Positions 165 through 44,009 of a stretch of DNA of 64,000 nt are shown here, in pieces. Source of the DNA: Trypanosoma brucei (lineage: Eukaryota). Both the position numbers and the translations under genes were made by a program. The stretch covers positions 800,001-864,000 of the forward strand of contig CP000068.1 in assembly GCA_000002445.1 (NCBI GenBank), written 5' to 3'. Within the stretch, counting starts at the first letter, position 1. Each line of letters starts with the position of its first letter. Below the pieces are notes generated by a model. It saw only the letters and a program-made list of their open reading frames with translations. It searched no databases and was not told the origin of the DNA.

Positions 165-2062
165 ATGAGCAGTGAGCCAACTGTTGATGAATCATCTAAG
201 CAGCATTGTAACCAGTTAGCCGTCCCAGAGGCTGCGGTAGCGCCAACAGAACCCCAACACACCACCAATTCTCATTTAAATGACGGAAAGGAAGTAAGTG
301 TGCAACTCGGGGAGCTTGACGAAACACCAGAACATTTACACCCTCTGGTTCATCAAATTAATACATTAAATGAGTGTGATCTCCTTCACATTGCTGAAAT
401 AACGGAATATGTCGTCACTCGAGATGTCTATTCGAGTTTACCATGCCGAGGTGGCAGTTGGTTCCTGCCAGAGGTACGTAACGTGGAGGATAATGAACCG
501 CAGAGGTGTCTTTCATGCATTGGTCGCGGTACAGTTTGCGTGACAATTTGTGGGCGGCGCATTATGTTTCCCATCCTGAGGATGTGTTTGTGTGCGATGA
601 TAATTGCCCTTGTGTGGTTTACGCTCTGGAATGCGTTACCACATTCCTTGCTTGAGCCCGGTGGGTATATTTGGGATACGGCTACTATTGTAATTGTTTC
701 TTCATTCCTCGGTGGCTTAGTATGCCGAGTATTACAGCTTCCAGCACTTGTAGGAGTTCTTTGGGTTGCCATTGCTTGGAATAATATTCCTTACGAGGGG
801 TATCTAACATCAGGTATCGGGTTAGGTATAAAAGACATTTCTTCCAAATTTGGTCTTACTGTGATCATGGTGCGTGCCGGGTTCTCCGCCTACTTAAGTG
901 GTATCGCTCTTCACTGGAAGCATACGCTAATGCTATCATTTATTCCTTTTGCCCTTGAAACAGTCGCGCATGCACTTATCGCCAGCGCTGTTTTCCCCTA
1001 CTACGATTTTAACTGGGCCGTTGTGCAAGGCTCAATTTGCTCTATTGTATCGCCTGCCGTAGTGGTACCCGGTGTGCTTTATTTACAAAATATGGGTTAT
1101 GGTCGTGGCTCTGGGCCCCTTTCTCTCATGGTGTCATCAGTGGGTATAGAGGTGGCAGTTGGGGTTTGGCTTGCAAGCACTTTTTTGGAGAGGATATTTT
1201 TTCAGCAAAGCCTCTTGACTTTCGGGCTTGTTGGTATTGCACAGCTTTTTGGTGGTGCGGGTCTCGGTATAATACTTGGGGTTGCCTTCTTCTACTTTGT
1301 GGAGTTATTTAAAGGCGATGTGCAACGACTTCCGAATGGTAAATTGCAGAAGAAATATCTCTTTCCCGTATTAGACCTGGTCACGTTTGTATTCCTTACA
1401 GTTGCCGCCCTTTTGGTTTTTTCGGGTATGCCGTTAGCCTTGCCGGTGGAGGTTGTATTGCATGCGTATTGTTTGCGAGCACAATGACTCATATGTGTCT
1501 GAGGAAAGGTAATCCAGAATTGGAGGCGCAAAGGAAATATATTGGTAAACGACTTGCACAAGTGTGGGACAACTTGATGATGCCCATCCTTTTCGCCATG
1601 ATGGGAGCAAAGTTAAGTACCGCATCTGTATTTAGCAGAGACTTCTTTCCAAAAGTCCTCGCATGTTTCTTTGGAAGTACGGCTGTTAGATTGGCCGCAA
1701 TATTTATTGTTCAAACTCGCTCTGGATTATCACTGCGGGAGAAACTGCTTGTTTGCGTGGGTTACTGTGGTAAAGCCTCAGCACAGGCATCACTTGGCCC
1801 CGTAGCGACCGCTTTGGTGGCTACTAAAATGGCATCACTTTCTGATGGAGAAGAACCGAGTGTTGAACTCTTGAAGATGAAAAAGTTCGCAGAAAATGTG
1901 CAGCAGGCATCCGCTACATATGTCATGTTTCTGGCAGTTGTGGCTTCTGTGGGACTCATGCGCGGTGGTTTGGCGCTGTTTCAAAAGCAAGAGAGAAGAC
2001 TTCGGGAGGGATCTGAACAGGATAGCGGAACCAGGGAGGAAGAAATGGAACAGAAGGTGTAG
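165..2062 (+). pseudogene. Cation:proton antiporter (CPA/NHE)-like polytopic membrane protein. The reading frame is interrupted: the N-terminal part (165..1487, frame 0) and the C-terminal part (ORF 1469..2062, frame 2) overlap at 1439-1487.
   Basis: The 132..1487 ORF encodes about 10 hydrophobic helices, including a 'SIVSPAVVVPGVL' segment that resembles the CPA 'ATDPVAV' helix. The next ORF, in a different frame, continues with more TM helices ('MMPILFAMMGAKL', 'AAIFIVQ') and a hydrophilic tail. Together they are about 630 aa, the size of a Na+/H+ exchanger. Frame 2 has a stop at 1436-1438 and frame 0 stops at 1485-1487, so the frame change must lie within 1439-1487. The first in-frame ATG is at 165; the ORF-track start at 132 is TTG. 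Confidence 0.5.
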
Positions 2063-3554: not shown

Positions 3555-5642
3555 ATGTCTCGACGTGTATTGTGGGAATCGGTTCGGCAGGAGGCACGTA
3601 GCAGGGTTGAAGGCGTCAATGCATCACCCATCAGCACGAATGGAATAATAGAGGCACGAGATAAAAGTGATGGTTTGATTACATACGAGGAAGGTGGAGG
3701 CGTCAGCGGCGTTGCAAACGATAATGAAGGGGGATCTCACGGTAAAATCGGGAATATGGCCACAGTGTCACAAGAGAATCGGGATACACAAAATCATGCA
3801 ACTGGTTCACACGATAGCATAATCGCCAGTTGTGATATTAGTTGCATTCCAAAAGATAAGCACGAGTTGCACGGGCCTCCTTCGCACCTTTCACGTTGTG
3901 GATCATCTCCTGAAGCTGAAGGAAATTGTTCCGCTACCGCAGACCCAACGCAGTCGCATTTAACGGATCTGGCTATTTCTGTGCTGCTGGAAACGGGAGG
4001 GGATACACATCAAGACAAGGGTTACAATACGGGGCTTGATGTAAACAACAGCCGCTTCAATAGTTCGGCTACAAACAACATACATCGAGAGCTGGCGCAG
4101 GAAAAACAAAAAAACATTGCTGCTGAGCAACGATTGCTGACGCTGGAGAAGAAAATCAGGGCCCTGCGCGAGGAGAATCAGCATTTACTACTTTCTTCCG
4201 CCACAAATGCAACTGACAGGAAGATGATGAAGGGCGCGACTTCGGCTTACGCTGAGGGTGAAGTTGTTGGCCATGGTGTGCAACGTGACTTTGCGGATGA
4301 AGTTACAGACACAGCTGGGGAAGAGCTACTAGCACTGAAGCGGCGTTGTGATGAGTTGGAGGTTCGGCTCGGTGAATTAACGGCACAGGTGCGACAGAAG
4401 GACCAAGAATTAGAGCAGAAGGAAAATCGAATAAGGCAATTAGAGCACATAATTGCCAACGATCTAATTCGCCGATCAGCGGATGTGAACAAAGAAGAGA
4501 ATACTCAAGGCAGAAGTGAGGGGGTCGGCCGCAGCTCCCCAAAAGTTGAATTTAGTGTGAAAAAAGACGTACCCGGGAAGAAGAACAGCTCAACCCAAGG
4601 AACAAACGGTGTAGTGAGTAGAGAATCACCAACGACAGCCGCTGCCCGCGAGACGGCTTCGTCCACAGCTGCAGCTCCACCCGGATTGAACTTAGGGGAC
4701 TTGCGTTCAGTCGAGGCTCTGCAACGACTGTTACTGTCCAGCATTGAGGCTACTAACTTATTGGTCGATAGTTCAAGAGTGTCTAAAGGAAAGGAAATGG
4801 ATACCTTATCGGTGCCCTCCTCCCTCACGCACGGGTCGTCGCATCTTGCCGAAGGGTACACGCGTGTGAGTACTTCAGATGTCAAGCAGCGTCCCCTCCG
4901 CGTAGTGAGACAAGGGGAAATAGTAAGCCATTCAGCGACCTCTAGAGCTTCATCAGCTGCAGGTGTGCGTGCGTCTCCCAGTCGCCATGGAGCGAGACAC
5001 CGCGCCTCCTCCGTCCCCGGAAGGTGCAGTGAGTCGCGTGCCTCTTCAGTGAGGGCAATTCGACAGAGAGGACCATCGAGTGATTCGCCCATGCGAGAAG
5101 CAGCGATGTTTGCGCGTATATCAAGCGCCCCCGGGTGTAGCAAAGCAACTTCGTCTCTCTCTTCACGTCGCCCTCCGACCCAAAAGCTTCTCAGTGGTCG
5201 CATTCCGTTACGCTCCACAGAACTCTTTAGCAATGTGACCCATATGAACCGCTTCTCACAGTACCAGAATGCTCGACGAACCTCGCGCCCGGACGCATGT
5301 GCATCCGCCGCCTCGCCAAAAAGTAGCTGCTCGACGAACAAATCAAACGGCCGAGCTCCGAACGTGAAAAAATATGTTACACCTAGGGCCCGTGCTCGAC
5401 CACGAATTGGCGTCGAGGCCACAGCCAGGAGTTTAAAATGCTCACCTCCACAGAAGCCTAGTACAACGGTCATCACCCGCGTTGAAAAGCAACGTGAAAG
5501 AACTCCACCAACACCTGTTCGCCGGGCAGAATATGTGAAAGAGGTGTTATCACAAGACCCATTTGTGTCTGAAATGTTTAAAACAACTTACCGACCCAAC
5601 CGACTGGTGCGGTGCAGCAAAGAGGAAGGGGAAAGTGTATGA
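3555..5642 (+). CDS. Hypothetical protein with a central coiled-coil ('LTLEKKIRALREENQHLL', 'LKRRCDELEVRLGELTAQVRQKDQELEQKENRIRQLEH') and a Ser/Arg/Pro-rich basic C-terminal tail.
   Basis: A 698-codon ORF with its first ATG at 3555; the track start at 3546 is TTG. A polypyrimidine tract lies at 3478-3503 upstream. The ORF is on the same strand as its neighbours. No family recognised. Confidence 0.55.
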   Translation: MSRRVLWESVRQEARSRVEGVNASPISTNGIIEARDKSDGLITYEEGGGVSGVANDNEGGSHGKIGNMATVSQENRDTQNHATGSHDSIIASCDISCIPKDKHELHGPPSHLSRCGSSPEAEGNCSATADPTQSHLTDLAISVLLETGGDTHQDKGYNTGLDVNNSRFNSSATNNIHRELAQEKQKNIAAEQRLLTLEKKIRALREENQHLLLSSATNATDRKMMKGATSAYAEGEVVGHGVQRDFADEVTDTAGEELLALKRRCDELEVRLGELTAQVRQKDQELEQKENRIRQLEHIIANDLIRRSADVNKEENTQGRSEGVGRSSPKVEFSVKKDVPGKKNSSTQGTNGVVSRESPTTAAARETASSTAAAPPGLNLGDLRSVEALQRLLLSSIEATNLLVDSSRVSKGKEMDTLSVPSSLTHGSSHLAEGYTRVSTSDVKQRPLRVVRQGEIVSHSATSRASSAAGVRASPSRHGARHRASSVPGRCSESRASSVRAIRQRGPSSDSPMREAAMFARISSAPGCSKATSSLSSRRPPTQKLLSGRIPLRSTELFSNVTHMNRFSQYQNARRTSRPDACASAASPKSSCSTNKSNGRAPNVKKYVTPRARARPRIGVEATARSLKCSPPQKPSTTVITRVEKQRERTPPTPVRRAEYVKEVLSQDPFVSEMFKTTYRPNRLVRCSKEEGESV

Positions 5643-8306: not shown

Positions 8307-11300
8307 ATGAATCGCAAGGGGTATAAGGCTCTTCCAAGGGAATATGATGAGGGTTTTAGTGAGGAAAGAGTTAGGCATGCATTGAACAAAGATGCTCCCA
8401 GCAAAATATATGAGGAGTTCATTGTGCAGAGGTTGCAGGAAATTATGGAAACTGCTCAGTCTGATTCGAAGAAACCTGCCACATTCGGGCGTGCAGCCGC
8501 CGCAGACGTTTTTTTGCGTCAAGATGCACCCATTACTGTAACATTTGCTATGCTGGCGACTTCGTGCGCGATGCACCCCACTACCGACGTTGTTACGTTT
8601 TCAGTGTTGTTCGCCGCGCTGTACACGTCGTGCATGGCATTGCAGGTACTTCTTTTATGGTTACGCATAACCGAAAAGAGACAGTCAGCTATTTCTGTCA
8701 TGCAAAAAGTCCTCACACGGTGGAAAAAGCGTCTCGTAGAGGGACCACCGAGGGATAAATTGGATCGCCGCACTGTGTTTCGTTTGTTTTCTTCTTTCCT
8801 TCCAGCTAGCGCCTTTCGTATTGTGGCTGTTGTGGATACAACGACGGGGCGGCTAAAGCGTACTCTGAAATGTCTTGTGATGAAAGGGGCTCTTCGACTT
8901 CAAAGGACGACGTTGAAGGTGAGTCGTCACACGGAGCCAATTGAGTTATTTAAACTCGTCGACATCGTGCGAATGATACTGAAGGGTGAAGCCGTGATGT
9001 TGAGATCACTTCCAGATATGGCTCCTCCACCCCGGCACCCAAACGTAACCGTCGACGCCAACATCAATGGTACAGGGGTAGAAGGAAATGACGAGGACAT
9101 ATCAACAGATGAGAGTGATGACGAATACGACACGCGATGTGAGGCGAATAGTGTTCATGCGCTGTCGGTACCGCAACAGATGGCTTTTCTTGTGTATCGC
9201 TTCGTTCTTCTTGCTTGGTTGCTGGGCATCGTGGCGTGTACTTTTTCTGGTTACATATATCACGTACTCACCGATATCCCGCTGAGTGACGGCGTCTTTC
9301 TGAATCCTGCTGTAGCATTACTTGGGTTACTACCTGTAAACGCAAAGTTGCTGAATAGCATCCTCGTTATGTATGCGAATGTGAACCTTGAGTGTCTATT
9401 TCGTCATCTTGTCTCTAAAACCACACACGCTGTTGATGATCGGATTCCGAGACTTCCCTTCCGGGCAACTATGCAAGCTTTCCGCCGTGCCACATCAGCT
9501 ACCTGCAGTCGACCCCCATTATGTTTTTCTTCCTCATTGGTCGAAACACTTGGAACCACAACCGTCGTGGCTCTGCTCGACACAACAGGCGTAGTGACCG
9601 ATATGGTTCCTCTTCCCACACGGTTGCTTATGCTTAAGAGTTACACAGCACCGGAAACCCCCAGTAGCACAAGCAGCACTACAACCAGCGATAGCGATAA
9701 CGACGAATTTAATGGCGCTGCTGCCTTTACAGGTCTTGATCATAGCAATGACCCGGACCCGTTCCTGAGAGCAGCGAACTTTGACCCAGAGTATCGTTTG
9801 GCGTTGAAGCGTCAAGTCCGGCAAAAGAAAACACAGAAGAGGAGGTTCCTGGAGTTGCAACTTGCACCTGGTACCGATGATGATCTTGCTGTGCAGTTTG
9901 CCGACTGCAAGGAGCGGCAAAAGTGGGAAAAGAATGTGGACTCCCTTTCACTGTGTTTGTTGATTCATGCTATGGCACCTGAGCCGACCAAATTCGAAAC
10001 GTGGCAGGAGCCGCTTAGGTTTTGTGACCAAACACCCCGGTGGGGTCCCAGCATACACTGGGTGCCGCGTGCAAGCGAATTCGATGATTCATTAGCTAAG
10101 TCATTTCGAATTGTGGCACGTATATTTCATATCAATACGGTGTCTTGGCCGGGACGCTCCAGAGAGTGCCCGGAACAGACTTGCACGCTCCTGGTGGTCG
10201 CCAGTGATGGTCTATTACACGCATTTACTGTCGGTACCGTTTGTATGGTAACTCACAGTTGCCCATTTCACTTTAACGGCTATGAAATTGAAGGGTTCGA
10301 TGAAGAGTTACGAGAGGAAGTAGTTAATACTGGCACAGTGGTGTGGAAAGACGGAAGAGGATTGGAAACCGTGGCGGCCTCGCACGCTATGCTACCGGAC
10401 AAATTTCGTTCCTGTGCAGAGGCTTTGCCGCGGGAGGACGGCTCGTACGCTGAGTTTTTGTTTTATAATGGGGTGCAGATTACCGCTGAGAACTGTCTAG
10501 CCGAACTTAAGTTGTCTCCATCGGGGGAACCGTCGACAAATGGATGTGAGGGGACAAATGAAGGGGTACCACGCGAATGTTTCCTAGGAGTGCCGACGAA
10601 CACGAATGGTTCAACGCCTGCAACCTCTGAAGCAGACGTTATAGGTGCCATCAACAGCAACGAGAGAGATGCAATCAACGAAGGGAATAGCTTCTGTTGC
10701 AGCAAGGGATTTACAGACATTCATGGAAACTCCCGCCTTTCGTTTGTTCCCACTTCTGTTGAACTACTAGGCGACCTTCTTCATGTTCTTATTAACGGCT
10801 CGCACGCCTTCTTGGGGCTTGTTGGACTTCAGGATTCCATTCGCCCCAATGTACAGAATGCGATGTCAGTTCTTGATGAAGCAGGTATCCGTTGCATGTA
10901 CTTCTGCTCTGACGGTGAAAGGCGGACCAAAAGCCTCGGAAATCGCTTGGGCCTTGAAACGGATTGGAACTGCTGCATTTCTTTGGACGAAGGAGCCAAG
11001 GACCTTGACGCTCACAGCATTCGAGCACAGCTACCAGTGGGGATAAAGTCCATTAGGCGACATATCGTACACGTAGACTCCATTCCATTGCAGGTTAATA
11101 TGTTTTCCCACGCACACAGCGCATCGACGCGTGCGATGCTTTCCATCTTGCAAGACAACCACGAGGTTGTGTCCGCCATTGGGTCGACGTTCAACCATAG
11201 CAACGTTCGGAGCTACATTCAGGCGGACTTGTCTGTTGGAGTTCTTCCGCAGAGGCGCGGAGCTGTAGAAGACAAGGAGGGACTATGCTTAGAAAATCAA

Positions 11301-12506
11301 AAGCGTATTAGTGAATCATCTGATATTCGTAGTATGAAGTCTGAGACTGGTGATCAGTTACTCTATCGCGATGTAGTGGACCTGATTGGCTGTGCCTGCA
11401 CGCTCTCGGATACCTCGACCACCTCAATGTTACCGATAGTGACAACTTTGATTCGACAGGCAAGGTTTCGGCTAAGTGGAATAGGCAATTGCATTTCCTT
11501 TGTGATGCATGCAAACTTTTTTGTTACATTTTTGAATGTAATACCCTTGATAATTGGTGGGCCGCTCCTGATACAGCCAGCAGCTGCGGTGTTTGAGCTC
11601 AATGTTATCATACCCATCCTAGCTCTCTCGTGCACCTACACTGCGTATGCGGACAAGGACCCAATGAAGAGCATTCAATCGAGGCATAATCATTTCGTCC
11701 GACTTAAAATATTGCGTCACAGTGCTGTCGTGTGGTGCCTGCGGTACATTCCCTCACTTGCCGCGTTGTTGGCTCTGGGCATAACGTGTGGTTTACAAAA
11801 GTGTGATAAGGGAAGTTTGCATGAGCTCGCGCTCTCTTCATCCGATAAATGTATGGCTGCAACGCGTGGTTACATTGGACTCACGTTGAATTATTGGCTG
11901 ATGTTTCACAGCTGGACGCACATGAGTCGTTACGACAGACTTTCACCCGCATTTCTATTTAAACCTCGTTACGGTGGACAATACATGTACTTATTCACAT
12001 CTGCTCGGTGGGTCGCTGCCAATGCGCTAACCGTATTCTTCAGTGTTGCGTTTGTTGTCGCGGAAACCTTCTGGGACGGCATACTTGAAGACGCCTTCTT
12101 TCCATCACGCACTCACTTCTACATCTCCGCCTTCTTCCCCGTGCTGTTGGTGTTATTGGATATACCAATAAAGTCGTGGAGGTTGAAGCGCGCAACTTTA
12201 ATGCAAAAGTTCCGTCAGTTGTCTTTCGGTACGCGGCTGGGGATGCATTCACCGCGAGGAGACTATGAACCGGAAGTTGGTTCGGCCACCGGTTGTAGCG
12301 GAGGAGCCAATGAGTGCGGAGGCGGGGTACAGGGAAGCACATCAGACGCCAACGTACGTAATGAACTACCGCTGCGGCGTAGGTTGCAGGATGCCTTTTA
12401 TCGCTTCACAACCATGCGCAGGGGAAAACTGGAACTTAACTGCGTATGTTGTGATCATATCGGGGGTAACTACGCCACGTATCACATTAACGCAAACGAC
12501 ATGTAA
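8307..12506 (+). CDS. Large (1399 aa) polytopic membrane protein with a divergent P-type ATPase-like P-domain, possibly TMEM94-like.
   Basis: ATG at 8307. The segment 'LGLVGLQDSIRPNVQNAMSVLDEAGIRCMYFCSDGERRTKSLGNRLGLE' parallels the SERCA P-domain '[42 protein letters not shown]'. 'CTLLVVASDGLLHAFTVGT' sits where the phosphorylation motif 'ICSDKTGTLT' would be: the SD is kept but KTGT is lost. The C-terminal TM helix 'NVIPLIIGGPLLIQPAAAVFELNVIIPILAL' resembles the P-type M-helices. Multiple TM segments are present in both the N- and C-terminal regions. Confidence 0.6.
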   Translation: MNRKGYKALPREYDEGFSEERVRHALNKDAPSKIYEEFIVQRLQEIMETAQSDSKKPATFGRAAAADVFLRQDAPITVTFAMLATSCAMHPTTDVVTFSVLFAALYTSCMALQVLLLWLRITEKRQSAISVMQKVLTRWKKRLVEGPPRDKLDRRTVFRLFSSFLPASAFRIVAVVDTTTGRLKRTLKCLVMKGALRLQRTTLKVSRHTEPIELFKLVDIVRMILKGEAVMLRSLPDMAPPPRHPNVTVDANINGTGVEGNDEDISTDESDDEYDTRCEANSVHALSVPQQMAFLVYRFVLLAWLLGIVACTFSGYIYHVLTDIPLSDGVFLNPAVALLGLLPVNAKLLNSILVMYANVNLECLFRHLVSKTTHAVDDRIPRLPFRATMQAFRRATSATCSRPPLCFSSSLVETLGTTTVVALLDTTGVVTDMVPLPTRLLMLKSYTAPETPSSTSSTTTSDSDNDEFNGAAAFTGLDHSNDPDPFLRAANFDPEYRLALKRQVRQKKTQKRRFLELQLAPGTDDDLAVQFADCKERQKWEKNVDSLSLCLLIHAMAPEPTKFETWQEPLRFCDQTPRWGPSIHWVPRASEFDDSLAKSFRIVARIFHINTVSWPGRSRECPEQTCTLLVVASDGLLHAFTVGTVCMVTHSCPFHFNGYEIEGFDEELREEVVNTGTVVWKDGRGLETVAASHAMLPDKFRSCAEALPREDGSYAEFLFYNGVQITAENCLAELKLSPSGEPSTNGCEGTNEGVPRECFLGVPTNTNGSTPATSEADVIGAINSNERDAINEGNSFCCSKGFTDIHGNSRLSFVPTSVELLGDLLHVLINGSHAFLGLVGLQDSIRPNVQNAMSVLDEAGIRCMYFCSDGERRTKSLGNRLGLETDWNCCISLDEGAKDLDAHSIRAQLPVGIKSIRRHIVHVDSIPLQVNMFSHAHSASTRAMLSILQDNHEVVSAIGSTFNHSNVRSYIQADLSVGVLPQRRGAVEDKEGLCLENQKRISESSDIRSMKSETGDQLLYRDVVDLIGCACTLSDTSTTSMLPIVTTLIRQARFRLSGIGNCISFVMHANFFVTFLNVIPLIIGGPLLIQPAAAVFELNVIIPILALSCTYTAYADKDPMKSIQSRHNHFVRLKILRHSAVVWCLRYIPSLAALLALGITCGLQKCDKGSLHELALSSSDKCMAATRGYIGLTLNYWLMFHSWTHMSRYDRLSPAFLFKPRYGGQYMYLFTSARWVAANALTVFFSVAFVVAETFWDGILEDAFFPSRTHFYISAFFPVLLVLLDIPIKSWRLKRATLMQKFRQLSFGTRLGMHSPRGDYEPEVGSATGCSGGANECGGGVQGSTSDANVRNELPLRRRLQDAFYRFTTMRRGKLELNCVCCDHIGGNYATYHINANDM

Positions 12507-17465: not shown

Positions 17466-20400
17466 ATGCCACCGCCCACATCTGTTGCCTCAACGGCACG
17501 CTCCAGCAGTGGTGCAACTATCAAACGAAAGGTGGATGACCGCATCCGCAAGGTTATTGAGAATGCCGTACACAAGCGGCATCGCGCACTTCTACTGCTT
17601 GTGGGTGACCGCGGAAAAGATCAAATTGTTAATCTTCACCAGATGGTTTCACACGCCAACCACAACGCAAAGGTGAATGTGTTATGGTGCATGAAGAAAG
17701 AACCGGACTTCGGATCAACAAGCCTTAAACAACAAGAGAAGAAGGCGCGACTTGAGGTGAAGGGTGGAATGTCTACCGATGCAACGAAAGAAGCCTTTCA
17801 GACATTTCTTTCGCAAACCATTATAAGGTTTTGTCAATACAAGGAAACACATAAAATACTTGGGCAAACGTTTGGTATGGCGGTGCTACAAGACTTCGAG
17901 GCTATGACACCCAACACATTGGCGCGAACTATTGAGACCGTGAAGGGAGGTGGCATTATTGTAATAATGTTTCGCGCAATGAAGTCACTGAAGCAGTTAT
18001 ACACCATTGCTATGGATGTCCACTCTCGGTATCGCACAGAGGCTCTTCAAGATGTGGTCCCGCGCTTCAACGAGCGATTCCTTCTTTCTCTAGTTGATTG
18101 CGACACATCACTTTGTGTGGATGATGATCTTAACGTGCTTCCAATCACCGCCAAAATGTGTGCCGTAGAGAGTGCACGAACAACGTCGTATGATGAAACA
18201 TTAGTTCTACAAGGGCGACAAAAGCACGAAGCGGACTTGGCTGCACTAAAGGAACGCCTACGGGCCAGTAATGAAGTGGGGCCACTCATTAGCCTATGCC
18301 AAACACTCGACCAAGGCAAGACCATTCTTTCACTTATGCAGACGGTTGTGGAGAAGTCGCTAAATACAACATGTGTTGTTACTGCTGGTAGGGGTCGTGG
18401 TAAATCTGCAGCACTTGGACTTGCGACTGCTGGCGCTGTGGCACAGGGGTACAGTAATATCTTCTGCACAGCACCATCGCCAGAAAATTTACAAACATTT
18501 TTCGAGTTCGTTGTGCGTGGGTTGCAGGAGCTTGGGTATAAGGAACGCACAGACTTTGAAGCCATGCAAAGCACGAACGTCGAGTTCAGCAAATGCATTA
18601 TACGTATTAACGTTTTCCGCGAGCACAGACAAACTGTTCAATACATTTCTCCGAACGACGCATCAAAGTTTGCACAGGCGGAGTTGGCGATTATTGACGA
18701 AGCTGCAGCCTTGCCGTTGCCGATTGTTAAACAAATGCTCGGCCCGTACTTAGTGTTTCTTTCTTCGACCATCTCCGGTTACGAGGGCACAGGCCGGAGC
18801 CTCTCCATGAAACTTGTTGCAGACATGCGAAAGCACAGTGGAAGCACTAATGCCTCAGTGGCAGGTGACGACCGCCGGCTTCTTCGCGAGTTATCCATGT
18901 CAGATCCTATTCGTTATGGTCCCAATGACCCTGTGGAGTTCTGGTTGAACAAACTGCTGTGCCTTGACGCCACCGTCCGACCGATCGCCGTGAAATCCTC
19001 TCCACACCCAAATTCTTGTGAGTTGTACTACGTGAACCGTGACGCACTCTTTTCTTATCACCCTTTGGCCGAACAGCTGCTGCAGGCAATTGTGGCCATG
19101 TTAGTTGCCGCCCACTACAAAAATCAACCCAATGACCTGCAGCTCATGTCCGATGCACCCGGTCATCACCTCTTCATACTATGTCCCTCTACTGTGGATG
19201 CAAAGAGCGGCATTCCAGACGTATTTTGTGTAATTCATGCATGCGAGGAGGGACACGTTTCGTCCGAAGCAATCAAAAGTAACCTCAGCCGGGGGTTGCG
19301 CCCTTCTGGGGACCTAATTCCCTACACCCTATCGCAGTATTATCTCGAAGAGGGATTTGCAAAACTTGCAGGTCTACGAATTGTTCGTATTGCCACAAAC
19401 CCGGAGTTGCAACGCGCCGGATACGGCTCGCGCGCTCTCGAGCTACTGCAGCAGTACTACACGGGCTCTGTGTCGTTACGTCCTGCCGCGTCTGCTGCTG
19501 CTACAGAAAACAATACGGAATTAAAAGCAGTGGACGATGCCGATGAAGTGAGTAGCACCATCTCACATACCATCAAACCGCGCAAACGCATACCCAGCCT
19601 TTTAGTGCCTCTCATTGAGAGACCTTATGAAGAGATTGACTACCTTGGCGTGAGTTTTGGTGTGACAACGCCTCTGTTTAACTTCTGGAAGCGGGGAGGG
19701 TTCGAGCCACTGTACCTACGTCACGCGGCGAATGAGTTAACTGGAGAGCATAGTTGCGTTATGGTTCGCTCGTTTGGATTTGACCTCGGGCTACTCCGTG
19801 CTGAGTTCCGTCGTCGATTTATTCCCCTTTTAGCGATGCCATTTCGCCAACTTCCAACAGAATTGGCACTGAGTATATTAAAGGATGTTGATGTTAATGA
19901 CCCACAAAAATTAGCAGCTGCCACTGACCTCTCTCATGTGGCGGAGCATAATGTCCGCGTGGCAGGCCAGCCTCAGTGTACATGGAAGGAACTGCAGGAA
20001 ATATTCAGCATCAGCGATTTGAAGAGGTTAAAGCTAAATGCCACTACATTTGTCGAGGGTGGCCACGTTTTGGACCTCGTTCCTGCTTTAGCGAAATTGT
20101 ATTTTGAGTCGCGTTTATTTCACCTTCCCGATGGGGCAGAGGGTGTCGTACTCTCCCACGCGCAGGCTGCAGTACTTTTAGGCGTTGGGCTTCAGTGCCA
20201 AACTATTGAGGAAGTTGGTCAGCAGGCGGTATTTTCTGGCGTACCAACACAGCAGCTGCGTGCCTTTCTACAGAAGGCAATTTCTCGTATAGTAGACCAT
20301 TTCACGCGCCTGCAGAAGCTGAAATTGACTGGATCAAAAGAAGAAGAGACTGTGAAAAGGAATGGGGGGAATGACGATGCGGATGAAAACACCCATGAGA

Positions 20401-20585
20401 TTTACGATAAGGAGGGACGTGTAGTTGGGTTATCCGTGGAAAAGAGAGTCCGGAGTGTAATTAATGTAGATTCGACTTTGCTGCGCGACGCGAAGTCGGC
20501 AACAGTCGGAGCAAGAAATGATGCAGGAGGAACAACAGGATTGCAGCGGGCGTTCAAGCGGTCAAAGAAAACTCGTCGCGGCTGA
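17466..20585 (+). CDS. NAT10: RNA cytidine acetyltransferase (NAT10/Kre33 family).
   Basis: 1039 aa. The N-terminus 'LLLLVGDRGKDQIVNLHQMV...VLWCMKKE' matches the NAT10 N-domain. 'HKILGQTFGMAVLQDFEAMTPNTLARTIETVKGGGIIV' and the Walker-A 'TAGRGRGKSAALGLATAGAVAQGYSNIFCTAPSPENL' match the NAT10 helicase module. 'VNVFREHRQTVQYI', 'ELAIIDEAAALPLP' and 'GPYLVFLSSTISGYEGTGRSLSMKL' are conserved. A GNAT region follows ('GLRIVRIATNPELQRAGYGSRAL'). Confidence 0.9.
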   Translation: MPPPTSVASTARSSSGATIKRKVDDRIRKVIENAVHKRHRALLLLVGDRGKDQIVNLHQMVSHANHNAKVNVLWCMKKEPDFGSTSLKQQEKKARLEVKGGMSTDATKEAFQTFLSQTIIRFCQYKETHKILGQTFGMAVLQDFEAMTPNTLARTIETVKGGGIIVIMFRAMKSLKQLYTIAMDVHSRYRTEALQDVVPRFNERFLLSLVDCDTSLCVDDDLNVLPITAKMCAVESARTTSYDETLVLQGRQKHEADLAALKERLRASNEVGPLISLCQTLDQGKTILSLMQTVVEKSLNTTCVVTAGRGRGKSAALGLATAGAVAQGYSNIFCTAPSPENLQTFFEFVVRGLQELGYKERTDFEAMQSTNVEFSKCIIRINVFREHRQTVQYISPNDASKFAQAELAIIDEAAALPLPIVKQMLGPYLVFLSSTISGYEGTGRSLSMKLVADMRKHSGSTNASVAGDDRRLLRELSMSDPIRYGPNDPVEFWLNKLLCLDATVRPIAVKSSPHPNSCELYYVNRDALFSYHPLAEQLLQAIVAMLVAAHYKNQPNDLQLMSDAPGHHLFILCPSTVDAKSGIPDVFCVIHACEEGHVSSEAIKSNLSRGLRPSGDLIPYTLSQYYLEEGFAKLAGLRIVRIATNPELQRAGYGSRALELLQQYYTGSVSLRPAASAAATENNTELKAVDDADEVSSTISHTIKPRKRIPSLLVPLIERPYEEIDYLGVSFGVTTPLFNFWKRGGFEPLYLRHAANELTGEHSCVMVRSFGFDLGLLRAEFRRRFIPLLAMPFRQLPTELALSILKDVDVNDPQKLAAATDLSHVAEHNVRVAGQPQCTWKELQEIFSISDLKRLKLNATTFVEGGHVLDLVPALAKLYFESRLFHLPDGAEGVVLSHAQAAVLLGVGLQCQTIEEVGQQAVFSGVPTQQLRAFLQKAISRIVDHFTRLQKLKLTGSKEEETVKRNGGNDDADENTHEIYDKEGRVVGLSVEKRVRSVINVDSTLLRDAKSATVGARNDAGGTTGLQRAFKRSKKTRRG

Positions 20586-37627: not shown

Positions 37628-38986
37628 ATGCACGTACTTGGCAGAGATCCTACGTCCAACTGCCTCCCCAATGCTAGTGGAGATGAGGCCAAACAAATGA
37701 ATGGGCGTGCACGTAACCCTTATGCTGCAAGAAATGGTTTCAATGTCAACAGCGGGGAAGAAACGCAATGTAGCCCGATTGGTTCACCTATAAACCCACA
37801 TTGTCGCGAGGGTTCTGGAGAATACGCGGTGCAACCCGTTAACGTACAGGCGCGTTACCGTCTGCAAAGCCCACCAATATCTTTTGCATCGGGAAATCCA
37901 TCATTTCCCACCTCACCGCGTGATAGTGCTCTACATTCCACGCCACACGTGCGTAGTTGCAGTAACTCTTTTCCTTGCGATGGATTTTGTAGGCCAAACC
38001 CTTCTGGCCAGACGTTTAGCCCGGCGATGGGGAGGTCCCCTGATTTTAGTAACGATCCCAACATGTGCATGCCACCGTACCCCGGCGGTTACACGCCTTC
38101 AGGTTTTGTTATGCCTCCTGCACTTGCAACGGCTGCACCACCACCTCGTACTGATGTGATGGGGCGCGCACCGGTACCCGACGGTCAAGCGTCCATGCGA
38201 CCCAAGCGGCCGGTGAGTTCACCCATCGCTTGCGGTCATGGCTCCCGTTACGTCTCACCGGTTGTGTTGTCCGTTTCACCAAATTATCAAGTTGGATCCC
38301 ACCCGCTGTGTAACCCAACAGGTCCCCAATCCGTTGGGTGTAATAATGTGCATGTTGCAGTTGGCAGCGTGGAGCCCGCTCAAAGCGCACACTCCAAAAT
38401 GACTACGGGTGATGGGAGTTCAACCGTGTCTGGTGGTAGTGGTAGCTCTATTCGTGAGGACTTACCCTTGTGTTCCAATGATGGCGTATGCACGTTAATT
38501 AACGACCGCAAACATCAGCGACGGTTTGCACATACCTGTCGTCTGTTCCCTTGTTATCATGGACACATAGCGCGGCATTCAAAACTGTTCCGGCATGCAC
38601 CTGGACAAGTTGCACAGTCGGAGGAACTGCTCAACAACGGCGATGGGTCAAAGAAACTTCCTGCAGAGGCGCTGACAAGCGTAAGTTTCAGTTCTATCAG
38701 TCGCGAGGCCGCCAACGCCTATCGTATCATTGTTAGTCACAGAAATAAAAGTTATGAAATATTCGGTGACTGGATGAATGTCCGTGTGCATACCTTTAAG
38801 CGTTACTTAAATCAGGTGTATAACGTGCCGCCACCATCGCAAGTGCTAGTGCGGGAGGAAGGCAATGTCCCACTCGATGACGATCTTGAATCTGTAGGAC
38901 ATTATGGCATTAAACAGGATGGTGTGGTGATTCTAAGGTGGAAGGATGAAGATGAGCCTCTTGCTGTTTCTCTTGAACAGCTGTAA
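37628..38986 (+). CDS. Hypothetical protein with a Cys/His putative zinc-binding motif and a C-terminal ubiquitin-like domain.
   Basis: The first ATG is at 37628; the track start is GTG. 'CSNDGVCTLINDRKHQRRFAHTC' (C-x5-C-x7-H-x5-H) is reminiscent of PBZ-type fingers but does not fit the consensus. The C-terminus 'PPSQVLVREEGNVPLDDDLESVGHYGIKQDGVVILRWKDE' has a ubiquitin-like pattern (inference). The N-terminal half is Pro/Ser-rich low complexity. Confidence 0.5.
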   Translation: MHVLGRDPTSNCLPNASGDEAKQMNGRARNPYAARNGFNVNSGEETQCSPIGSPINPHCREGSGEYAVQPVNVQARYRLQSPPISFASGNPSFPTSPRDSALHSTPHVRSCSNSFPCDGFCRPNPSGQTFSPAMGRSPDFSNDPNMCMPPYPGGYTPSGFVMPPALATAAPPPRTDVMGRAPVPDGQASMRPKRPVSSPIACGHGSRYVSPVVLSVSPNYQVGSHPLCNPTGPQSVGCNNVHVAVGSVEPAQSAHSKMTTGDGSSTVSGGSGSSIREDLPLCSNDGVCTLINDRKHQRRFAHTCRLFPCYHGHIARHSKLFRHAPGQVAQSEELLNNGDGSKKLPAEALTSVSFSSISREAANAYRIIVSHRNKSYEIFGDWMNVRVHTFKRYLNQVYNVPPPSQVLVREEGNVPLDDDLESVGHYGIKQDGVVILRWKDEDEPLAVSLEQL

Positions 38987-41900
38987 GAAGGTTTCATTAC
39001 TTTGTTTTTTTTCTTTTACCGCATGGCATCGTGGTAAAAGGAAAAAAATATATATATATATATGTGTATGTGTTTATATATATATATACGTGTTTATATA
39101 TGTTTATAAAGAACGAAAGGAAAAGGAAAAAAAAGAGCAGTGGGAAGGTGATGCCAAAAATAAACGCTGTTTCGTGCTAATGAACTGGTGGTGGAAAATG
39201 TGGAGAGGAAGAGGAAAAAAAAAAGAAAAAGAAAGGAGCGAATTCGTAATTATATTCAATTATACACGCGCGCACCTGCCACGGAACATTGGCAAAAAAT
39301 ACATAAATCTATTGATATATATATATATATATATCAACAAATATATCTCTCCCTCGAATTTTAACAAACCCTTCACTTCCCAATATAATAAAATGCAACC
39401 GGCAAGCCAAAGGTGCGGTGACACCTCAACATTTGGAAAAAAAAATAAGTCAACACAAACATACGCAGACAACGAGAGAAAGAGAGAGAGAGAAGAAGAA
39501 ACAGAAAGAAAAGAAATAAGAAAAAAATTTATAATAATAACGATGATGATGATAATACTGAACGGAAGCAGAAAAATTATATATATATATATATATATGA
39601 GTTATCATACGTATGTATATTTAGGTGAAGGTATTCCGAAGAAGAAGGAGGGGGGAAAAGTAGAGAGTGTGAAAGTGTAAAAGAGTTGAAGAGGAAAAAA
39701 AATAAATAAAAGAATATATATATATATATATTATATATATAAGAATTGAGATGAGATGAAATGGAAAAAGGTGAAGCAACTGAGTTAAATGAAAAAAAAA
39801 AATGCTCCTTCAATAGCCTAATGGCTGTAGTGCAGTTGGCAACACAAATGTGGCGTTGTTGTTGTGCTTTGCGGCTTCAACTATTGTGTTATTTGTTTAG
39901 TAATACTGTGGTTGTTTTCTCTACTAATCTTGTCATCATATATTTGTATGTCTGCATACGCCTGTGTTTTTATAAATTGGAGAGGAGGATAATGAGAGTT
40001 CCACTAAGGAAGAGAGAAAGAAAGAAAGAAAGAAAAGGACAAATGTGAGGGAAAATTTAAAAAAGATATATATATGAGTTAAATGACTTGGTTGTGGTGA
40101 GATGAGAAATAAATAAATAAATAAAAGACGTTGAAGCATTATAGACAACACGAAAGAATGAGTAAATAGACAACTTTACGACATTTATACCTAAACTCTT
40201 TTTTTTCCTTTGTTTGTTCGTTTGTTTTGAAAAGAAGAGAAGAGAATAAAGGAACTTAGGGATATTGAAACAGTAACGAGTGTGTGAGGGAAAAGTAGTC
40301 AAAAGGAGAGAAGAAGGTGAAAAAACAAAAAAAACAAAAGAAAAGAAGAAAAACGAAAAAGTTGTGACGGTAAAGAGGGGTTCATTTTTTTTCCTTTTCT
40401 TTAATTTTATTTTTCATTTGGTTGTTTCTTTTGTTTAAAAAAAAAAAAGAAAAAAGATGTGAAGTTATTGCGGAAGGTGACTAAATAAATAATTAAGTAA
40501 CGTGGACTTCACGCACGATGATAAGGAGACACAAACGCACAGGCACACAAAAATAAATAAATAAATAACGACAGGGATAAAAAGAAGAGGTTAATTTAAG
40601 CTTAAAAACAAAAAAAAAATATATATATATATATAACAAACGCTCCTTTGAAATTATTAATTGTTTTTTTTATCAATCTAAAGGAAAAGATATGCAAATA
40701 TAAATGAATGCATACTGAAATTTTAAAGAATAAAGAAAAAAGTTTAAACCAGAGCGATTAATAAAGATAAAAGAAAATTAAGATGATAATGAAAAAGAAA
40801 AAAGAAAAAAAACGTTCCCAATTAATTTAAATGGGTGATGTTCCTCATGTTTTCAATTGTTTATTGTTTCCTTTTTCCAATGTCAGAGAAGACAACAACA
40901 AAAGATTAAATGTCCCCCTTTTTTTTCCTTTTGTTTTTTTTTGCGTACTTCCGTCTTTTTTTTTCCTTGTATCGTTCATAATAAATCCTTCTAGTGAATG
41001 CAATGGAAAGAAAAAGTGAAGAAGAGATAAGGTTCTCCTTCTTCCATTTTTTCTTTTTTTTATTGTATATCTCTCGTGTTATTTATGTATTTATATATAT
41101 TTTTTCCCTCTAAAGTTCGAGGGAACAAAAACGATATGTTTACTGCGGAATTCCAAGATTAATGAAGGGCAAGTGCCGAAAGGGAAAGAGAGAAGGGGAG
41201 GGGAGGGGAGAGGGGGAAAAAAAAAGAAGTAAACAAAGTGGGAAATATTTGTTTTTCCTTTTGATTTTTTTAATTTTTGTTTTTAAAGGAAGAACTGACG
41301 CATCTCTGGATGCGTGATGTGTGTGAGATAAAAGGGAAAAAGGGAGATTAATGAGGCGTTGAGGGGAGTGGGTAAATTAATATATACAATTTGTTTTCAT
41401 GCGATTTTGTTCCGAATTGTTTTCTTATGTTTTTTGTGTCCACTTCATTTTTGTTTGGTTTCATTCTTTTTTTTTCCTCTATTTTGCTGTTTGTTCTTCA
41501 CAATTTATCTCTTCTTTTTTTGTTTTTTTTGTGCTTATATATATATATATATATATTTATTTATATTTGTTTATGGTGTTACTTTCTCTCCATTTACTAT
41601 TAATTGCCTTTCAATTTTTTTTCTTACACTTACTCTTTACCTTTAATTGTTTCTTCTTTACTTTTCAATTTAAATATTTTGTTTTTTTTTCTCCTTACAA
41701 AAGAAAAAAAATTCCTTAACTAACTTCATATAATTGTAGACTCTCTGTGATTGAAGGTAAATATGAGTGGCAGTTTGAGTGAGGTTTTGATGTGACTTCC
41801 TTTTCGTTTTTGTGTTTTTTTTATTTTTGTCGTTGTTTCCTTTCTTCTCTTTTTTTTTTTTAGAAAAAAAATCCCCTACATTATTCGCCAGCATAACTTT

Positions 41901-44009
41901 GTTTTCTTTTTCTTTTTTCATTTTCATTTCTCTCCCTTCCTCCTTTTCCCCTCCTTTTAGTAACTTATTTGGGATATTTGGCAACAGAAGAGATGAAAAC
42001 GGAGGGAACCGCATTGTATCTTCTCATTTTTTGTTTTTTTTGTTTTTGCACCTTTTCCTTTAAATTCCATATCTTATGTTGTGTCGTGAGATGGTGACTT
42101 TTTTTATGTTTTTTTTTTAAAGAAAATTAATTAATGAGAAAATGTGTATTTTAAACATTTCATGTCGCCGTTTGTGTGTGTGTGTGTTGTTGTTGTTGTT
42201 TTTTAGCGAAGAGACAAAATAGCGGAAATGACAAAAAAACCAAAAGAGTAAAAAGGAGGAGTGAAGGTTAGGGCTGGAGTGGAATAAATTAAAAAAAAAG
42301 AAAAGGAGACAAAGAGAAGTAAAAACACAAAACGATTCTGAAATTTAAAAATAAAAAAAGGGGAAGGCAGGTAGCGAATGCGTCAAGCGGTGAGAAAACG
42401 CGTTCAGCTCTCGACACTTCCGCATTTTTTTTTCCCTGTCGTGTTGGTGTTTTATTTCGTTTTTAATAACCGGAACATGTTCGATTTTTTTTTTTTCTGA
42501 AAAAGAAAAAAAAAGGGAAGTTGAGGATATGAGTGAGTAAATGCGCGTCTTATTTTTGAGTTTGTGGCACTTCTGATTTTAATAAAGAACAGTGTGAGGG
42601 GTAGGGGAGAGAGAAAAAGTCCTTTTCATCTTGTTTACGTGACCCGCTACACTTTTGAATTAAGTTGCGGCAGTTAATCCCACAGTCTTTTTTTTTTGCG
42701 TAAATGAGATGCAAATTAAACAGGAAGGGAAAGAGAATAAACAGAGAGAAGAGAGGGGGGGGGGGGAAATAGAATGGTGAAAGAGTTTTCGTGATTTTAT
42801 TCCCTCTTGTGTTTTTTTTTTCCTCCTCTCCCCCCCATGATGTGGAAGATCCTCTTGATTTGTGGTGTATTTCATTTTGGTAGTGTTCCAACTCTCTCAA
42901 TTTTTCCCCATTTTTTCTTAAAAACCTTACGAGTTTGTTTGTTTGTTTGTTTTCCCCCCTCCTCCTCCTCTATGTTTCCATCCATCCATCCATCCATCCA
43001 TCCATCTCCTAAATTGACCTTCAGTTGTATATAAATACGACCCCATCCCTTCTAATTTTTTGTTGATGTTTTCCCGTTTTTTTTCTCTCTCTGCATGTGT
43101 GTGTGTGTGTGGTGTGTGGTGATTATTGTTAAAATTACTACTATTAATATTATTATTACCTTATATATTTTTTTTCCCTTTTCAATTTTGTGTTACACAT
43201 ATCAAAATAACGTACGCCACCTCAACCACCTCGTCTACTCGATTGCTTTCTTTTTTGTGTGTGTGTACGACAAAAAAGAAAATTCCACACAAACACACCA
43301 CACACATGCGCATTACACTCCAAAGTGTTTAACATGAAATGAAGGAAAAAACAAAATAAAATAAAGGAGGAAAGGAAGAAGGAAGGAAGGAAATAAAGGA
43401 GAGCGCGCATTAAAATGCATGGTGATGTTTGAGCAGCGCTAAACTTCCACATCTTTTTTTGCTTCCTTTTATATTTAACAACCTGATTTACTTCTTTTTT
43501 GTTTTTTACTCCCCTCTCCCTTCATTTTTTTGTTCTAGTCACTAACCTTCATCGCCATCAATCCCTCTTTTTCGTTTGTTTATTGTTTCGCTGTTTTTTT
43601 TTTCACTTTTTCGTTTACACGTTTTTGCTCTCGGTGGTGGTGGCGGCGGTGTTTTTTTTTTCTTTTTTTTTCCTCACTTGTTGATCTCTCTCCCTATAGC
43701 TGTGTTCGGTAATTGTAGTTGTAGAAGTTACACCGCTGTTTAACGTCTGCTATTTTACATATTTGCATTTGCGTAGGAGTGCAGTTGTGCATTAAAGCTC
43801 CTCTTTTCCCTCTTTCCTTTTTTCTTCTTTTTTGAACTCTTTTTTTTTTTAAAAAAAAAACATTTTAACTTGCCTTTTCTTCTTCTTGTTGTTGGATATG
43901 CTTTTAGCGTCGTGTGGTGTCGCATATAGCACAAGAAGCGAGAGGGAGGAAGAGGGAAAAGAAAAAAGAAAAGAATTCCCTTTCCGCACATAGTTCGCAC
44001 AGTTATATC
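38987..44009. repeat. A ~5 kb ORF-free, AT-rich low-complexity region made of alternating homopurine (GAAA/AAAT/AG-rich) and homopyrimidine (T/CT-rich) blocks with many microsatellites.
   Basis: No credible ORF on either strand; the track ORFs here translate poly-Lys/Phe/Ile repeats. (TA)n runs lie near 39048-39070, 39315-39335, 39578-39600, 39715-39740, 40620-40637 and 41538-41560. (AAAT)n lies at 40108-40125 and 40551-40566. (GT)n lies near 42174-42190 and 43093-43118. (CCAT)n lies at 42978-43006. A G12 run lies at 42755-42766. Confidence 0.6.

Follow-up and report, generated by a model that had tools for sequence, protein, structure and literature searches.

Single-base frameshifts that interrupt conserved genes have already been described in Trypanosoma brucei. 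In strain Lister 427, the length of the coding sequence (CDS) differs between alleles in 123 genes, with 1-bp frameshifts among these differences (Cosentino et al. 2021, PMC8445201). The frameshift alleles examined there (for example Tb427_090051600 and Tb427_110082100) were phased and followed by RNA-seq and Ribo-seq, and are heterozygous; they are transcribed normally, show no mRNA decay, and are translated as far as the premature stop, with no reinitiation beyond it. A related case is Tb927.2.5860/Tb927.2.5870, a pair of consecutive ORFs in the TREU927 reference that is proposed to be a single gene split by mistake and that is intact in another strain (PMC8445201, Fig. 2F legend). Here we compare with these cases a gene split over two reading frames in TREU927, whose product resembles a further described system, the mitochondrial/endosomal sodium/hydrogen exchanger 9B2 (SLC9B2/NHA2) of the CPA superfamily and the Pfam family PF00999.

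The gene lies near the start of a 64,000-nucleotide stretch of the reference sequence (contig CP000068.1, positions 800,001 to 864,000), hereafter the window. All ten ORF products tested, taken from across the window, match deposited T. brucei brucei TREU927 chromosome 5 proteins exactly (XP_844922 to XP_844944). A supplement table of PMC8445201 identifies the 344-aa upstream neighbour of the split gene as Tb927.5.2480, the 695-aa downstream neighbour (window 3555-5642) as Tb927.5.2500 and a 1399-aa gene (window 8307-12506) as Tb927.5.2510. By the numbering between Tb927.5.2480 and Tb927.5.2500, the disrupted locus is Tb927.5.2490.

Table 1. Features of the disrupted locus, in window coordinates (ORF analysis and comparison with intact alleles).
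Feature	Position	Strand	Description
Whole disrupted gene	165..2062	+	SLC9B/NHA-like Na+/H+ exchanger family member (PF00999); 632 aa with the missing A restored
5' ORF, frame 0, 440 aa	165..1487	+	Start ATG at 165; residues 1-419 native, then 21-aa out-of-frame tail SGMPLALPVEVVLHAYCLRAQ; stop TGA 1485-1487
Lesion, T6 run	1417..1422	+	Arose by loss of A between 1417 and 1418
3' native coding part, now frame 2	1418..2062	+	Residues 419/420-632; stop TAG 2060-2062; frame 2 open from 1343

An initial annotation had read this locus as a polytopic transporter of about 630 aa encoded in two frames, and the ORF analysis and the PF00999 match bear that out (Table 1). Its account of the junction needs revision. 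It had both frames open only across 1439-1487, but upstream of the junction frame 2 is last closed by a stop at 1340-1342, which gives a shared open stretch of 1343-1484; a stop at 1435, apparently the one behind the earlier limit, belongs to the third frame. It had also seen no homopolymer in the region of the shift, whereas the true interval holds two T runs, T4 at 1411-1414 and T6 at 1417-1422. The lesion sits at the T6 run and thus falls outside the interval first proposed. A promoter/terminator scan with bacterial models, an Rfam search and a tRNA scan returned nothing relevant.

We used as search query the repaired translation, in which one T was added to the T6 run. It aligns over 100% of its length, at about 99.7% identity, with a 632-aa protein of T. 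b. gambiense DAL972 (P0001). Intact 632-aa alleles are also present in T. b. equiperdum IVM-t1, T. equiperdum OVI and the read-archive assembly ERR7929161, the proteins of these three being drawn from the 90% cluster. Single-ORF orthologues occur in T. congolense, T. vivax, T. cruzi, T. grayi, T. theileri, Leptomonas, Leishmania, Strigomonas and Bodo saltans, and the orthologues found, 30-plus, are all single proteins, trypanosomatid and Bodo alike. The alignment of orthologues over the junction for which the initial annotation had called shows every one of these kinetoplastid sequences as one ORF, not two genes. In this protein alignment, orthologues match frame 0 as far as ..AALLVF and frame 2 starting with FGYAVSLAGGGC.., and a conserved block, VF(F/L)GY..LAGGGC, crosses the junction.

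The domain evidence points the same way. On the intact gambiense allele, PF00999 matches residues 177-552 in one stretch, covering profile positions 1-346 of 375 with 54.1 bits against a gathering cut-off of 26.2, and so places the protein in the PF00999/CPA family. The frame-2 part alone scores 37 bits, and the frame-0 part alone gives no match at E <= 0.1. Single orthologues, together with a conserved block and one PF00999 match that cross the junction, support the single disrupted gene that had been proposed. We read window 165..2062 as a single conserved gene, present in one copy, for an SLC9B/NHA2-like protein of the Na+/H+ exchanger family.

SLC9B2/NHA2 is the sole solved relative that was found by sequence. 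The nearest structures are those of bison (7b4l, E = 2.7e-18) and human (7p1i, E = 4e-15), and the alignment covers residues ~140-550 (142-550 for 7b4l), which crosses the junction and establishes homology to a structurally characterised exchanger. Motifs common to SLC9B2/NHA2 and the T. brucei protein include SPAVVVP, GYG and K-A-(S/T)-(A/V)-Q-A, and both are polytopic, the T. brucei protein with about a dozen hydrophobic segments. Kinetoplastid homologues carry the JGI name 'solute carrier family 9B member 1/2'.

The likeness does not extend to the ion-binding site. Unlike in NHA2, where paired aspartates lie in ..GSFDDILAIT.., the aligned positions of the T. brucei protein are E-V in ..SVGIEVAVGV.., and the adjacent aspartates (DD) of electrogenic CPA2/NHA-type antiporters (NhaA, NHA2) are therefore absent. 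The HMMER alignment sets NHA2 'fDDil' opposite 'iEVav'; a one-residue shift would pair I-E with D-D, and either way one acidic residue is left. This residue, E329, varies hardly at all among kinetoplastid orthologues, where it is flanked by hydrophobic residues and is the only acidic residue conserved. Because the DD site is missing, 'Na+/H+ antiporter' is used here as a family label, and cation/proton exchange by the kinetoplastid proteins is putative. Literature searches found no functional study of kinetoplastid SLC9B-like proteins.

The substitution is general among the relatives: at window 1140-1175 (residues ~325-335), a single glutamate (..SVG-I/V/M-E-I/V..) replaces the ion-binding DD of NHA2 in proteins P0001 to P0028. 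With a single glutamate in place of the pair, ion specificity or stoichiometry in kinetoplastid SLC9B-like proteins may differ from that of NHA2/NhaA. Also unlike NHA2, the kinetoplastid proteins carry a conserved N-terminal extension of ~130 aa that has no Pfam match. It corresponds to window 165-560 (residues 1-130), where the block PEHLHPL..I..L...D...I...T.....RD.YS.LPY.GS.WFLP is kept from T. brucei to Bodo saltans. We read the extension as an addition peculiar to kinetoplastids that precedes the exchanger domain. The gene in the window is, in addition, truncated after residue 419.

To define the lesion, the CDS of the window was aligned at the DNA level with those of T. b. gambiense (L001), T. 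b. equiperdum IVM-t1 (L002) and ERR7929161 (L003). The intact alleles read GGTATTTTTC where the window reads GGTTTTTTC, and the missing A is the sole CDS indel in 1.9 kb relative to these three T. brucei-group sequences. Of the two events first envisaged, a 1-nt deletion or a 2-nt insertion, it is the deletion that the alignment bears out, with exactly one nucleotide missing. In the intact alleles a lone A breaks up the T's (T-A-TTTTT), and its loss brings the T's on either side together as the T6 run. Because the lost base is this lone A and not a T of the run, the lesion is no classic homopolymer-length miscount.

The ORF is thus disrupted relative to intact alleles and orthologues, as expected of a unitary frameshift pseudogene, and is otherwise in good order. 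The same alignment holds ten CDS substitutions, eight synonymous and two conservative (L/I), and no second lesion. We therefore see neither the further lesions nor the excess of nonsynonymous change that would mark relaxed constraint, and conclude that the event is either recent or an artefact.

The flanks are more variable. At ~2150 in the 3' flank, TREU927 lacks a 7-nt TGTTGCT that is present in gambiense and IVM-t1, and A/T runs at ~50, ~93 and ~2098 differ by single bases in length between TREU927 and the same two genomes. Indel polymorphisms or errors are frequent in these non-coding flanks, and the CDS has only one.

Translation from the ATG at 165 would be normal for 419 residues, continue for 21 wrong ones and end at the stop at 1485-1487; V418 and F419 are kept by coincidence. 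The frame-0 product is without the last 213 residues, and with them go several nearly invariant columns (LAGGGC, WD..MMP.LF, LLVC.GY.GKASAQAS) as well as no fewer than three or four hydrophobic segments. The lost LAGGGC helix, WD..MMP.LF helix and GKASAQAS motif are all parts of the one PF00999 transmembrane domain. As the last third of one continuous domain is absent, the truncated allele should give no working transporter. By analogy with the Lister 427 alleles, it would be transcribed within its polycistron and translated to the stop only, and ribosomes would not start again on the 3' ORF.

No protein from the locus is on record. The 440-aa and 192-aa fragments, products from alternative Met starts and the repaired protein are all absent from a collection of 15 billion proteins in which 10 of 10 neighbours tested are present. 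Similarly, the table that relates Tb427v10 to the TREU927 proteome (TriTrypDB v42; PMC8445201 supplement) jumps from Tb927.5.2480 to Tb927.5.2500, so that the 2019 TREU927 proteome used in that study has no protein for the locus. We infer from the missing protein that the locus is annotated as a pseudogene in TREU927, although a missing deposited protein does not tell the cause of its absence. Literature searches on Tb927.5.2480 to Tb927.5.2510 (including 2490), on a T. brucei Na+/H+ antiporter and on pseudogene or frameshift found no statement on the locus, and the supplements of genome-wide papers gave only the IDs of neighbouring genes and none for the disrupted locus.

Elsewhere in the window, three regions deserve mention. 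The orthologue of Tb927.5.2500 is annotated at 472 aa in IVM-t1 (L002 9089-10507), whereas the protein has 695 aa in each of TREU927, gambiense and T. equiperdum OVI; the short form is possibly a frameshift or truncation, or an annotation artefact. An RNA cytidine acetyltransferase (NAT10-like, window 17466-20585) is one in-frame codon shorter in TREU927 (1039 aa) than in gambiense, T. equiperdum and IVM-t1 (1040 aa). Finally, about 4.9 kb within the plus-strand gene array (window 38986-43914) contains no ORF of at least 250 aa. This tract is of low complexity, with TA-rich, A-rich and TCCA microsatellites and no Rfam or tRNA match, and probably represents a UTR or intergenic region of unusual length.

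Several explanations of the split frame can be weighed against one another. Two adjacent separate genes, for membrane proteins of 440 and 192 aa, would account for the length of both ORFs and for an in-frame ATG at 1484 in the second. However, the ORFs overlap, which leaves no room for an intergenic or trans-splicing region, no protein is recorded for either of them, the 30-plus orthologues are single proteins throughout, and both the one PF00999 domain and the alignment to SLC9B2 pass straight over the junction. Having rejected the two-gene layout on the intact-allele, orthologue and SLC9B2 alignments and on PF00999 continuity, we give it next to no weight. Recoding, in which a -1 slip of the ribosome or stuttering of the polymerase on T6/U6 would let the frameshifted DNA yield the full-length transporter, was already thought much less likely at the outset, and that judgement holds. 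Passage from frame 0 to frame 2 requires a -1 shift, and a -1 slip after UUU at 1419-1421 would yield LLVFFGY, the exact wild-type peptide without substitution; this restoration is a coincidence of how the deletion made the T6 run. The frame-0 codons (CTT TTG GTT TTT TCG GGT) offer no X XXY YYZ heptamer and permit only P-site re-pairing on UUU. The 98 nt downstream (1423-1520) fold no more stably than shuffled sequence (MFE -25.4 kcal/mol versus a shuffle mean of -25.15, z = -0.08), and the two-frame layout occurs in no allele or orthologue, the close alleles having the interrupting A. A six-T run is, moreover, short for appreciable transcriptional slippage. To our knowledge, kinetoplastid U-insertion RNA editing acts on mitochondrial transcripts and not on nuclear mRNAs, and on this general ground we rejected nuclear editing as a rescue. 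In favour of recoding, premature-stop transcripts are not degraded in T. brucei, but ribosome occupancy falls at the premature stop in the 1-bp frameshift alleles of Lister 427 (PMC8445201). Programmed recoding thus failed on the slippery heptamer, on downstream structure and on conservation of the split; we rejected it, and consider production of the full-length transporter by recoding extremely improbable. A real deletion combined with low-rate -1 slippage, ribosomal or transcriptional, on T6/U6 would make the allele a leaky hypomorph that still yields a little full-length exchanger in TREU927, which we regard as very improbable.

The initial annotation had offered a pseudogene or an assembly error as its main pair of readings, and the single nucleotide missing relative to intact alleles supports that pair. 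We think that a genuine mutation of the TREU927 strain, or of one allele in it, is probable. The lost base is a lone A that stands outside any homopolymer in the intact allele, no other ORF is disrupted within the 64-kb window, and the 2019 proteome still has no protein for the locus. A real frameshift allele is also plausible because 1-bp frameshift alleles are common in the T. brucei diploid (PMC8445201). The deletion may be present on only one of the two TREU927 homologues and, since the gene is otherwise undamaged, would be recent. The lack of further decay nevertheless counts against a genuine mutation, as it fits an error in the reference just as well as a very recent event. If the reference is wrong, TREU927 has GGTATTTTTC on both homologues and a functional gene, and the A would have gone missing in the 2005 Sanger assembly, as an artefact of base calling or of the consensus that arose, for example, from two collapsed haplotypes. 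Consistent with such an error are the lone lesion in an otherwise perfectly conserved ORF, with substitutions that fit purifying selection (8 synonymous : 2 conservative), and an intact gene in every other T. brucei-group genome found. Additionally, false frameshifts from haplotype collapse are documented in this heterozygous diploid, and at least one gene of the TREU927 reference, the Tb927.2.5860/5870 pair, appears to have been split in error (PMC8445201). No independent sequence with the deletion was found, and none of the split products (440, 451, 192 and 197 aa) occurs in the gene-position index, a weak search in that this index also missed a known TREU927 neighbour that is present in the protein collection. 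An error has to contend with a lone A between T's, which leaves no run-length ambiguity, with the undisrupted state of the other ORFs in the window and with the gap in the 2019 proteome (PMC8445201), and we regard it as possible rather than probable.

If the deletion is real, TREU927, a tsetse-transmissible reference strain in wide use, has a null allele of a kinetoplastid-wide transporter under purifying selection. Were it homozygous as well, TREU927 would be without the transporter altogether, a mild hint of dispensability. A real deletion also calls for caution among users of TREU927 gene lists, as analyses built on the proteome miss the gene. Should the deletion prove an error, one reference gene model would need restoring. 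Neither outcome touches recoding or open mechanistic questions, and the consequences are mostly housekeeping.

The locus has close counterparts within its own species. As in the Lister 427 frameshift alleles, an indel of one base divides a gene that is otherwise conserved into a short first ORF and a second one, and an intact version exists in other strains; those alleles were characterised by phasing and by RNA and ribosome profiling, the TREU927 locus by sequence comparison. The locus likewise resembles Tb927.2.5860/Tb927.2.5870 in presenting one gene as two consecutive TREU927 ORFs, except that both halves of that gene are annotated proteins and neither half of the disrupted locus is on record. 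Thus, whether it is a strain-specific pseudogene allele or a reference error, the lesion is an ordinary single-base frameshift of a kind already described in T. brucei.
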